A DNA stretch of 64,000 nt from Escherichia phage 4MG. Positions 12,622 to 14,886 of this stretch are shown here, piece by piece. Under the pieces are notes generated by a model, which made no database searches, had not been told where the DNA came from, and was given only the letters and a program-made list of their open reading frames with translations. The stretch lies in sequence record NC_022968.1. One strand, 5' to 3'. Numbering within the stretch: the first letter of the stretch is position 1; each line of letters opens with the position of its first letter. The translations under genes were made by a program, and so were the position numbers.

Positions 12622-13104
12622 ATGACAGTTAGTATTCATGGGGTTATCTCCCATCGAAAACTGATGGAGTTGAAGAATTGTGGGGTTGTTTCTCCGGGGC
12701 TGTTTGATGCTGAAGCGGAAAGCCTCTTCAATTTTTATCGTAAGGTTGTGGCTCAGTCTCTGTATGAGATGAACGATGGGTTCTTTACCCGAATGATTTA
12801 TAACACTGCCGCAGCAGAACGCGATGCACGGTGGATGTTCCCGGATCGTCGTGATTTGCTGAATCACCTGATCTACCTGGATGGTAAATCCAAGTATGTG
12901 ACTGTCGAAAAGGAAGAACTTGACAAGTTCACAATGCTGCACACCGCAGCCGTAGCCTCTGAAAGGGCGAGAAAAGTTCTCGTGACATTCAAGTACAGCG
13001 ACCAGGTACTTGTCGATGACGAAACAGGGTATTACATCGACTGGCTGATGAAGAATGCATACATTCTGAAAGGCTATATTGCAAACGCTCGTGAGGAGGA
13101 TTAA
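12622..13104 (+). CDS. hypothetical protein
   Basis: ORF after TAGGAGGAGT. Confidence 0.5.
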   Translation: MTVSIHGVISHRKLMELKNCGVVSPGLFDAEAESLFNFYRKVVAQSLYEMNDGFFTRMIYNTAAAERDARWMFPDRRDLLNHLIYLDGKSKYVTVEKEELDKFTMLHTAAVASERARKVLVTFKYSDQVLVDDETGYYIDWLMKNAYILKGYIANAREED

Positions 13105-13105
13105 T

Positions 13106-14029
13106 ATGGAACAGAACAAGAACTTTTTCGGAATGCCGGGATTCAGTGGCAACGTGTACAGCTACCCTGTCCACTCTCACGATCATGTTATCTACATTGA
13201 TGACCTGTCATGGTTAGAAGATCATCAGGACCGCTTGCAGGTAATTCGCCAGGCATCTCCTGATGATACCATTCGTGTGGTAATTAACAGTCCTGGTGGG
13301 GTTGTTTCTATCGCAATGGCTTATGTAAGTGCTATTCGTGAAAGCCAGGCGTCGATTGTTACCCACGCAGAAGGTAACGTGTGTTCTGCTGGTACTGTTC
13401 TGTGGCTTGCCTGTAAGGATCGCACGGTCTCTCCCCTGACTATGTTCATGTTCCACAACTACCAGGGCGGTACGTATGGTGACGGTGCAAACATGTACAG
13501 CCAGATTGCCTTTGAAAAGCACTACTTTGATCGCCTGATGGATACCTTCTACACCGGGGTTCTGACAGAGACTGAAATTGCTACGATCAAAGGTGGTGGT
13601 CAGGTGTGGATGGATGAAGTTGAGATCCTGAAGCGCACCCCAGCGGTTCTGCTCGATGAACGAAACATTAAGCGTATGCAAGAGGGGCAGCGTCCGATCA
13701 TCTCCGGTGAGAAGCCGAAAGAAAAGACCGTGGTCGAGAATGTTGATCTGAATAACCTCCCTGAAGACGGCGTGCCAGAAAGCATTTTCCTGAGAATTGA
13801 AGTTGAGGGTGAGACCTTTAAGTTCGACGTATCGACTCTCCAGGCAAAAGACTTTGATCCTTTCAACGTTGCTGAACTGCAAACCATCTACTCTCAGATT
13901 GGTGCAATCGCCTCAGGGTCAGAGGAAGCCTTGATTGTGAATACTCGAAACCGTCAGGACCTGATCGATGCGATTCTCGCCGCTTCTGAAGAGATTATGG
14001 CTGATGTGCTGGAGAAAATGGGGAAATAA
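13106..14029 (+). CDS. ClpP-like serine protease
   Basis: VINSPGG and GNVCSAGT motifs resemble the ClpP fold; trimmed to ATG after GTGAGGAGG. Confidence 0.55.
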   Translation: MEQNKNFFGMPGFSGNVYSYPVHSHDHVIYIDDLSWLEDHQDRLQVIRQASPDDTIRVVINSPGGVVSIAMAYVSAIRESQASIVTHAEGNVCSAGTVLWLACKDRTVSPLTMFMFHNYQGGTYGDGANMYSQIAFEKHYFDRLMDTFYTGVLTETEIATIKGGGQVWMDEVEILKRTPAVLLDERNIKRMQEGQRPIISGEKPKEKTVVENVDLNNLPEDGVPESIFLRIEVEGETFKFDVSTLQAKDFDPFNVAELQTIYSQIGAIASGSEEALIVNTRNRQDLIDAILAASEEIMADVLEKMGK

Positions 14030-14709
14030 TGTCTGCGCCTTTGAAGAAGAAGGGGGAACGTAGGGATTATGACGTGTATGAGACACCAGAATGGGCTGTC
14101 ACGGCCCTTTTGGATGTTATCCCTATCAACCCACACTGGAAATATTTAGAGCCGTGTAGAGCGTCTGGGAGATTCTACAACCACATGCCAATAGGTTCAG
14201 CCTGGGGTGAAATCCGTCATGGTGTGGATTATCTCAACACAGAGTACAAGCATGTGGATTGTATCATCACAAACCCGCCTTATTCTTTGGCTCAGGAGTT
14301 CGTTACAAAGGCCCTTGAAGATGCGGATGTGGTAATTATGCTCCTCAGGTTAGGATTCCTTGAAAGCCAGATCCGGAACAAGTGGTGGCAGGACAATAAA
14401 CCGTCCAGCCTGATGGTCTTATCACAAAGGCCTTCATTCACCGAAGACGGTAAGACTGATGGTTCTGGGTACGCTTACTTTGTGTGGGATAAGAAGAACC
14501 GCCTTAACCTTGAACCATTCTATTTCTTGGAGGGTCAAAGCGATGAGTGTCGCAAACAAGATGCGAGAGATCGCAAACAACGCAGAAAAGCAAACGCCAG
14601 CAGAAATGAAGGACATCTTCGAACAGATAGTGAGCGGGATAGCTCAGTGTGCGAGGAAGGGGATGTACGGGATGGGACTCTCAATGGACTTCCCGGTGGA
14701 GATGAGTGA
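14029..14709 (+). CDS. N6-adenine DNA methyltransferase (NPPY class)
   Basis: CIITNPPYSL catalytic motif; C-terminal ~55 codons are low-complexity and overlap the next ORF. Confidence 0.55.
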   Translation: MSAPLKKKGERRDYDVYETPEWAVTALLDVIPINPHWKYLEPCRASGRFYNHMPIGSAWGEIRHGVDYLNTEYKHVDCIITNPPYSLAQEFVTKALEDADVVIMLLRLGFLESQIRNKWWQDNKPSSLMVLSQRPSFTEDGKTDGSGYAYFVWDKKNRLNLEPFYFLEGQSDECRKQDARDRKQRRKANASRNEGHLRTDSERDSSVCEEGDVRDGTLNGLPGGDE

Positions 14710-14821
14710 TTACCTGCCTCATATTGTTGGGGATCTTCGTAATGGAGGTTTCACAGTTGACATCATCGGATACCAGCCGACAATGCAAGGCACTTCGATA
14801 AACTTCTTTGTTACCTGGTAA
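14543..14821 (+). CDS. hypothetical protein (overlaps methyltransferase 3' end; boundaries uncertain)
   Basis: Alternative-frame ORF with internal ATG; ends just before a terminator. Confidence 0.3.
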   Translation: MSVANKMREIANNAEKQTPAEMKDIFEQIVSGIAQCARKGMYGMGLSMDFPVEMSDYLPHIVGDLRNGGFTVDIIGYQPTMQGTSINFFVTW

Positions 14822-14826
14822 ATTAA

Positions 14827-14854
14827 CCCGCTTCGGCGGGTTTTTTCGTTTTTG
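14827..14854 (+). terminator. rho-independent terminator
   Basis: CCCGCTTCGGCGGG hairpin followed by TTTTTTCGTTTTTG. Confidence 0.8.
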
Positions 14855-14857
14855 TGC

Positions 14858-14886
14858 TTGACATCAATTTTACCGAGGATTATTAT
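14858..14886 (+). promoter_or_regulatory. sigma70-type promoter
   Basis: TTGACA - 17 nt - TATTAT, about 20 nt upstream of the AAGGAG/ATG of the next gene. Confidence 0.7.

Follow-up and report, generated by a model that had tools for sequence, protein, structure and literature searches.

The genome of Escherichia phage 4MG (sequence record NC_022968.1) contains an open reading frame (ORF) for a putative DNA methyltransferase, the 3′ end of which is shared, in another reading frame of the same strand, with the 5′ part of the following gene, here called gene 2. A stretch of 64,000 nucleotides of this record (the window) was analyzed. The original prediction, made from the letters of the window, had noted that the two ORFs overlap for about 170 nucleotides and that the last 55 or so codons of the methyltransferase are charged and of low complexity. 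Both observations were confirmed: the overlap comprises 167 nucleotides with the coordinates 14543-14709, and the respective residues 172-226 include 12 lysines and arginines, 14 aspartates and glutamates, and six glycines. Comparison with relatives indicates that the overlap is authentic, has been maintained in evolution and arose by overprinting, and a probability of about 85% was assigned to this interpretation. The comparative analysis demonstrated that both frames are conserved, and that the methyltransferase frame, apparently the younger one, is free of stops, encodes a hydrophilic peptide and is closed by a conserved stop codon. The elements of the overlap are the following:

14029-14709, plus strand: methyltransferase ORF, long form of 226 amino acids; matches PHROG 799 "DNA methyltransferase" with E = 4e-85 over residues 1-225
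14029-14541, plus strand: catalytic core, amino acids 1-171, with NPPY at amino acids 82-85; equals the entire protein in short-form homologues
14529-14534, plus strand: Shine-Dalgarno sequence GGAGGG of gene 2, within methyltransferase codons L166-E167-G168, 8 nucleotides before the ATG
14543-14821, plus strand: gene 2, 92 amino acids, starting with ATG 14543, predicted to form a small alpha/beta fold; based on tblastn, PHROG 12158 and AlphaFold2 (AF2)
14543-14709, plus strand: dual-coding stretch of 167 nucleotides, shared by codons 1-56 of gene 2 and by codons 172-226 and the stop of the methyltransferase
14542-14607, plus strand: proximal tail, amino acids 172-193 (DECRKQDARDRKQRRKANASRN), net charge +5, amino acids 172-191 predicted to be helical
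14608-14706, plus strand: distal tail, amino acids 194-226, acidic and glycine-rich, predicted to be disordered (AF2 and charge counts)
14707-14709, plus strand: conserved methyltransferase stop codon TGA, the T of which is the third base of gene 2 codon 55 (AGT), while its GA comes from codon 56 (GAT)

Distribution of the long methyltransferase form

Relatives of the window were compared using megablast, tblastn and profile searches, and metagenomic contigs were included. The window belongs to a Seunavirus-like phage of the Vequintavirinae. In the megablast comparison, the Seunavirus phages GAP31 and EC152 matched it with 87% identity, and the IMG/VR contig UViG_2595698946_000001 (148,567 bp) is identical to the window throughout the part that was compared. 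The overlap was analyzed in 19 non-redundant lineages, which share 52-85% nucleotide identity in this region. It has its full length in 15 of them, and in the other four it comprises 146, 104, 80 and 68 nucleotides, so that the tail never has less than 22 codons. The ORF of 226 or 227 amino acids together with the 167-nucleotide overlap was found to recur in Seunavirus, Mydovirus, Henunavirus and Avunavirus as well as in many metagenomic lineages. Gene 2 of the window is read in the +1 register with respect to the methyltransferase, and the long form is restricted to the clade with this register. The frame of gene 2 lacks stops from 14459 to 14821 in the window, and the conserved start is the ATG at 14543.

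Outside of this clade the methyltransferase is short. In the rV5-like phages FV3, Bas49 and Bas55 it has 177 amino acids, and its stop lies in an ATGA junction at the start of gene 2. Most homologues of the wider family have a length of 166-180 amino acids and end just past the motif PFYW(V/I)S, and in relatives without gene 2 the short methyltransferase is directly followed by a terminator similar to that found downstream of gene 2 in the window (see below). The short form elsewhere and the position of the ATGA stop at the gene 2 start indicate that the tail is the younger, overprinted frame. Because the long form occurs only where gene 2 is in the +1 register, a register change at the junction probably removed the ancestral stop. 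An intermediate arrangement was found in the metagenomic locus L023 (IMGVR_UViG_3300026472_000003, 1501-2312), in which a methyltransferase of 182 amino acids overlaps gene 2 by 22 nucleotides with a frame difference of 2. This different register indicates that the junction was remodelled more than once in the subfamily. As expected for overprinting, both frames are open in divergent relatives more often than by chance, the shared stretch is long, and one of the two frames is younger.

Selection on the tail frame and competing explanations

To quantify how unusual the open tail frame is, gene 2 was rewritten with synonymous codons, and the methyltransferase frame was then checked for stops. 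For the window, the frame remained open for 54 codons in 0.35% of the trials when the codon usage of the window was applied, and in 1.3% when codons were shuffled within the gene, which is the conservative variant. The median first stop was encountered at codon 4-7. For the single full-length lineages the probability of a frame open for 54 codons was 0.0005-0.016. The controls devoid of a long overlap (FV3, L023, Bas49 and Bas55) have three to five stops in the same frame, whereas the earliest stop among the 19 lineages is at tail codon 22, and there is none within the first 21 tail codons. The distal part was open in representatives of seven of the eight clades, with a probability of 0.02-0.13 per clade, and at fourfold degenerate sites the eight clades are nearly independent of one another (identity 0.46 versus 0.30 expected).

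The third positions of gene 2 codons were then used as a more direct readout. A wobble position before an AA, AG or GA codon start is a stop-risk site, since a T at this position creates a stop in the methyltransferase frame. At such sites in the proximal part a T was found in none of 106 cases (38 expected) and in the distal part in nine of 117 cases (44 expected), while the non-overlapped part of gene 2 had a T at 23 of 83 sites. A tree-based count yielded no stop-creating change in the proximal part, compared to about six expected (p = 0.005). The depletion of T is a general feature of the overlap, where it makes up 7-19% of the wobble positions of gene 2 as compared to 28-50% outside, and within the overlap the bases at these third positions occur in proportions (G.44, A.27, C.18, T.11) that resemble those of a codon position 1. 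It also extends to sites at which no stop would arise (18 of 137 versus 48 expected, and 81 of 319 versus 125 expected), indicating selection for a hydrophilic composition of the tail, i.e., against codons with an initial T.

The stop codon itself is conserved in a peculiar manner. Codon 55 of gene 2 encodes eight different amino acids and is nevertheless NNT throughout the 17 lineages with a methyltransferase frame that extends far into the distal tail. Its T forms the TGA stop in 16 of these 17, and the remaining lineage (L062) has an equivalent stop one codon earlier. In the two lineages with an early truncation the T has been lost (AGG, TAC), and the short-form controls have TCA or ACG. 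Reading on beyond the TGA would append a hydrophobic stretch such as LPASYCWGSS. Taken together, these patterns indicate strong selection for an open, hydrophilic and correctly terminated tail frame.

The amino acid sequence of the tail, from which candidate peptides such as DSSVCEEGDVR and the C-terminal DGTLNGLPGGDE would be derived, appears to be less constrained than its frame. AF2 predicted a helix at residues 172-191 with a predicted local distance difference test score (pLDDT) of about 70, followed by disorder at residues 192-226 (pLDDT 30-38). Among the 15 full-length lineages, the proximal 22 residues have a net charge of +3 to +5 in 12 and only 0-5% hydrophobic residues in 14, and the net charge of the distal tail is negative in 14. 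The variable codon position upstream of gene 2 is the wobble position of the methyltransferase. Over the first 33 nucleotides of the overlap, there is conservation at each of the three codon positions (0.82, 0.69 and 0.64), and after about 66 nucleotides the wobble position of gene 2 becomes the variable one (0.41-0.47).

Substitutions were classified as silent in gene 2 only (SN), silent in the methyltransferase only (NS) or non-silent in both (NN). Between independent pairs of lineages, the rates for codons 2-22 were 0.020 (SN), 0.021 (NS) and 0.006 (NN), values that pointed to a constraint on both products in the proximal part but rest on 32 classified changes. For codons 23-55, SN was much higher than NS, and NS was similar to NN. 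Tree-based parsimony yielded SN/NS ratios of 2.1 for the proximal part, 4.8 for the distal part and 8.2 for the non-overlapped control. Purifying selection on the amino acids of gene 2 gave a clear signal. As the tree-based counts are softer than those of the independent pairs, just a modest amino acid constraint is claimed for the tail, which would be limited to its first 11-22 residues. In the distal tail no constraint at the amino acid level was seen, even though 15 of the 19 lineages have an open frame there.

These results are best explained by the following scenario. The ancestral state would have been a small orphan N6-adenine DNA methyltransferase that consisted of the 171-residue core and was an orthologue of the GATC enzyme of phage Bas51 (see below). 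The stop of the ATGA junction would then have been lost and the register changed, so that 55 extra codons were read through the first 56 codons of gene 2. Two proteins would be produced from one operon mRNA by separate initiation, namely of the methyltransferase at ATG 14029, presumably coupled via TAATG to the stop of the upstream ClpP-like gene, and of gene 2 at ATG 14543 from the GGAGGG inside the methyltransferase codons. The tail, with its basic helix and acidic disordered end, would be useful to the enzyme, and its most plausible use would be to provide additional non-specific DNA affinity to a minimal methyltransferase devoid of a separate target-recognition domain. There would be only a weak need for the distal tail. 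Unrelated C-terminal tails of 15-45 amino acids, rich in lysine and arginine, are also present in other branches of the methyltransferase family (P0028-P0031, P0054, P0070 and P0071; e.g., ...KNRERKRKPKKSSRKSKRKEKNTS), and their recurrence suggests that a basic tail may help such minimal enzymes.

Several points weigh against this interpretation. The tails are truncated in four of the 19 lineages, so that some backgrounds can do without the distal 33 residues. In the distal part the tree-based number of stop-creating changes, four versus about 7.5 expected, is not significantly low when taken alone. The identity at fourfold degenerate sites between the clades given above is higher than expected, and the lineages are therefore not fully independent. 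The tree-based SN rates of 0.85 (proximal) and 1.08 (distal) hardly differ from the 0.95 of the non-overlapped control, and purifying selection on the amino acids of the tail appears weak. Translation of either frame was inferred solely from sequence evolution, the DNA affinity of the basic helix is a conjecture, and the GATC specificity is borrowed from an orthologue with 65% identity.

A different view of the same overlap is that it is a functional device. The tail could act as a self-regulating or partner-binding module that alters the engagement of DNA or the detection by host sensors. In addition, as the tail crosses the ribosome-binding site and the start of gene 2, it could tie together the synthesis of both proteins, which would explain the kept frame and the exact stop. 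This possibility was regarded as unlikely.

The serious rival is that the tail peptide is functionless, and that selection acts on the ribosome traffic over the Shine-Dalgarno sequence and start of gene 2, with termination at a fixed position downstream. This could set the ratio of methyltransferase to gene 2 protein, or it could avoid termination and re-initiation in the 5′ part of gene 2. The Shine-Dalgarno sequence indeed sits within methyltransferase codons, and the distal tail has an open frame and a conserved stop position in spite of its lacking amino acid constraint. Furthermore, the rV5-like gene pair is translationally coupled via ATGA, and thus the expression of the two genes is linked in one way or another in all relatives. 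However, traffic as such would not account for the depletion of T at sites that cannot create a stop, for the conservation of all three codon positions in the proximal 33 nucleotides, or for the conserved basic charge of the proximal part, and four lineages terminate early inside gene 2 and have nevertheless retained gene 2. Ribosome traffic is improbable as the sole explanation, although it might hold for the distal tail.

Neutral read-through, i.e., a frame that is open by chance and by phylogenetic inertia after one ancestral frame change, was considered very improbable. It would be in line with the fast divergence of the tail amino acid sequence, the earlier stops acquired in four of the 19 lineages, the distal count of stop gains, which is not significantly low, and the incomplete saturation of synonymous sites between clades. 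In contrast, it is difficult to reconcile with the low probabilities per lineage and the open frames in representatives of seven of the eight nearly independent clades, and with the complete absence of T at the proximal stop-risk sites. The overlap-specific wobble composition is missing from the rest of gene 2 and from the short-form controls, and the wobble T of the stop was kept across eight encoded amino acids, its loss being confined to lineages in which the frame already ends further upstream.

Gene 2, the methyltransferase core and their surroundings

The original prediction had also considered a misplaced start of gene 2, and a start further downstream is what several database entries imply. 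If translation began at the ATG of the 49-residue products annotated in GenBank, e.g., GAP31_128 and gp153 of PVP-SE1, the true overlap would shrink to about 38 nucleotides, and the gene 2 frame would not be coding before this ATG. Such calls of 47-54 amino acids, or no call at all, are present in several deposits, and PHROG 15143 derives from 49-residue entries. However, tblastn showed all 92 residues of gene 2 to be conserved in 188 records of Vequintavirinae, which come exclusively from rV5-like and PVP-SE1-like phages. The conserved residues 1-43 are thus also present in phages without overlap, and in the Vequintavirus phages FV3, Bas49 and Bas55 the complete protein of 94 amino acids is annotated. 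In every long-form lineage, aligned codon 1 or -1 is an ATG or GTG and is preceded by a Shine-Dalgarno sequence (GGAGGG, GAAGG or AAGAGG). In codons 23-55, changes silent in gene 2 outnumber those silent in the methyltransferase by a factor of 5-7. The full-length rV5-like proteins of PHROG 12158 match gene 2 over its entire length. Lastly, AF2 predicted a small alpha/beta fold with a pLDDT of 84, and the helix 20-38 and the strand 43-51, which are encoded within the overlap, belong to the core of the fold and to its best-predicted parts (pLDDT 84-93). A downstream start is therefore highly improbable. Of the two features that would together have refuted the original prediction, the homologues have one: the methyltransferase indeed extends to 14709, but gene 2 does not start after it.

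A sequencing or assembly error, or a programmed +1 frameshift with a fusion of the two proteins, has next to no chance of being the explanation. The two overlapping frames and the low-complexity tail speak for it, and with gene 2 in the +1 register a +1 shift would yield a fusion of the methyltransferase and gene 2. However, the same arrangement is present in dozens of independently sequenced genomes and metagenomes, and gene 2 is equipped with a Shine-Dalgarno sequence and a start codon of its own and is a separate gene in rV5-like phages. A sequencing error was thus excluded by the recurrence of the arrangement in more than 19 independent lineages, including four genera and metagenomic lineages. 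Programmed recoding was excluded as well, because the window contains neither an X XXY YYZ heptamer nor a homopolymer of at least six nucleotides, the sporadic sites in other lineages are not conserved, the acceptor frame of gene 2 is closed 4-12 codons upstream of its own start in most lineages, and gene 2 has its own initiation signals. The natural frameshift that had been put forward survives in an evolutionary sense, since an ancient frame change is the likely origin of the overlap, but not as a recent event.

By the criteria of sequence conservation, gene 2 is a genuine full-length gene. It has no match to a Pfam or NCBIfam family, and a Foldseek comparison with the PDB gave no match below E = 0.1. 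The family is tiny. An exhaustive search of 1.84 billion proteins retrieved about ten cluster representatives, all of them short phage proteins, and a word-indexed protein search just six full-length proteins. The latter number is low because gene callers skip gene 2. In most Seunavirus, Mydovirus, Henunavirus and Avunavirus entries of GenBank the gene is cut to 47-54 amino acids or omitted. A C-terminal fragment of 49 amino acids is annotated in GAP31 (L001 2273-2422) and PVP-SE1 (L003 2230-2379), and no annotation at all was found in EC152, VLCpiM5b, Hena1 and 19-1-2 (L002, L005, L006 and L010 are among the affected loci). The analysis thus exposed a systematic database error, and PHROG 15143, a family of 49 positions assembled from the fragmentary calls, is built on truncated products. 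Candidate N-terminal peptides of gene 2 would be EIANNAEK and DIFEQIVSGIAQCAR.

Two further observations concern the gene 2 matches. Eighteen records labelled "Campylobacter phage" (MG065xxx; hosts C. jejuni) match gene 2 with 40.2% identity, the same value as for the E. coli rV5-like phages. Their genomes have sizes of about 128-141 kb, plus one record of 35 kb. They have the appearance of rV5-like coliphages, and the records may carry a wrong label or result from contamination. In addition, an HNH endonuclease gene is located just 3′ of gene 2 in the metagenomic relative L056 (2040-2528), and in Klebsiella phage KP12 the feature annotated under the gene 2 match is an "HNH homing endonuclease." Both cases suggest that the gene 2 locus is a site of homing-endonuclease insertion.

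The methyltransferase contains motif IV as DCIITNPPY at amino acids 77-85, and N82, P83, P84 and Y85 are invariant in 25 homologues. It belongs to the methyltransferase group PHROG 799 and fails as a curated Pfam or NCBIfam Dam member, because the scores for Pfam Dam (PF05869; 19.4 bits versus a cut-off of 28.1) and TIGR01712 (15 versus 97) are both below threshold. The AF2 model of the core is confident, and Foldseek matched it with a probability of 1.00 to Dim1/Erm adenine methyltransferases and the M subunits of Type I systems (E = 3e-5 to 3e-4). The predicted fold of the core is thus that of a class I S-adenosylmethionine-dependent, Rossmann-type adenine methyltransferase. A search of PDB sequences with the methyltransferase profile yielded nothing meaningful.

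The core is 65% identical to the enzyme of the rV5-like phage FV3, which has the same place between ClpP and gene 2. The N6-adenine methyltransferase of the Vequintavirus Bas51 methylates GATC and triggers the retrons Asa1 and Squ1, and the mutations D69G, D79G and T83P allow retron escape (PMC12548924). The affected residues D69, D79 and T83 align with D67, D77 and T81 of the window enzyme, and the 177-residue orthologues of FV3, Bas49 and Bas55 also have D, D and T. By orthology and these matching residues, a GATC specificity was inferred for the window enzyme. GATC is more common in the 64,000-nucleotide window than expected from the base composition (384 versus 246), i.e., it is not avoided. 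Among other motifs, CTAG is strongly avoided (33 versus 246 expected from the base composition), and GANTC is somewhat low (165 versus 246 expected).

The surrounding elements in the window are:

13079-14029, plus strand: ClpP-like protease gene, Pfam CLP_protease E = 6e-12, upstream of the methyltransferase in the same operon
14825-14852, plus strand: intrinsic terminator directly 3′ of gene 2, consisting of a hairpin (14825-14842) with the stem AACCCGC/GCGGGTT and a following T-run
14858-14886, plus strand: sigma-70-like promoter of the next gene (ATG 14908), TTGACA-17-TATTAT, matching at 11 of 12 positions

The TAA stop of the ClpP-like gene and the ATG of the methyltransferase have one base in common (TAATG), and the gene order is unchanged in every relative. 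An operon boundary is marked right after gene 2 by the strong terminator, which is followed by the near-consensus sigma-70 promoter. The positions of terminator and promoter indicate a single transcription unit that ends with the ClpP-like gene, the methyltransferase gene and gene 2. In several relatives (L055, L056, L058 and L060-L062) a gene with a GmrSD_N/DUF262 domain (PF03235) is located two to four genes 3′ of the methyltransferase, and one is also present in L009 (2862-3407). This domain is part of enzymes that restrict modified DNA, which makes its presence beside a DNA methyltransferase notable.

Relation to known overlapping genes

The overlap is a well-sampled example of a long out-of-frame overlap (167 nucleotides) in a large double-stranded DNA (dsDNA) phage, with a clear polarity and a natural control clade. 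As genome compression is not an obvious driver here, the gene pair is useful for studying the origin and persistence of overprinted C-terminal extensions. In addition, a clade-specific tail on a group of methyltransferases linked to retron triggering is a testable variable in the conflict between phage and host.

Same-strand overlapping genes that arose by overprinting in viruses have been reviewed (PMC8227390, PMC3494269). As in these cases, a pre-existing frame, here gene 2, was apparently overprinted by a younger product that is charged, of low complexity and predicted to be disordered, both frames are open across relatives, and the younger frame is under the weaker amino acid constraint. 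In contrast to them, the novel frame is a C-terminal extension of an existing enzyme and has no start of its own, and it resides in a dsDNA phage genome of ~148 kb, where there is little pressure for compression and annotations of long out-of-frame overlaps are rare. A literature search for this overlap in rV5 or PVP-SE1 phages found nothing relevant.

Out-of-frame remodelling of C-termini has been described for bacterial genes in the E. coli pangenome (PMC8788219), and the two situations have in common that the C-terminus is exchanged or lengthened by reading in another register after a frame change close to the 3′ end. The difference is that in the phages the new C-terminus is read from a neighbouring gene that is still functional, and that this state persists across several phage genera. 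The closest relative in terms of the enzyme is that of the Bas51 type (PMC12548924), which is orthologous, contains NPPY, has the same place between ClpP and gene 2 and has alignable escape residues, but the rV5-like enzyme has 177 amino acids, stops at the gene 2 start (ATGA) and has neither the tail of 55 amino acids nor the long overlap. With programmed frameshifts of phages, such as those of the tail assembly chaperones G/GT and of T7 gene 10A/10B, the gene pair shares the use of two frames near the 3′ end of a gene. Unlike in these systems, there is no slippery site, a fusion is not required, and the two products have separate starts and stops. The type of overprinting is therefore itself known, and the methyltransferase and gene 2 are a further example of it, in which an enzyme was extended from the coding sequence of its neighbour.

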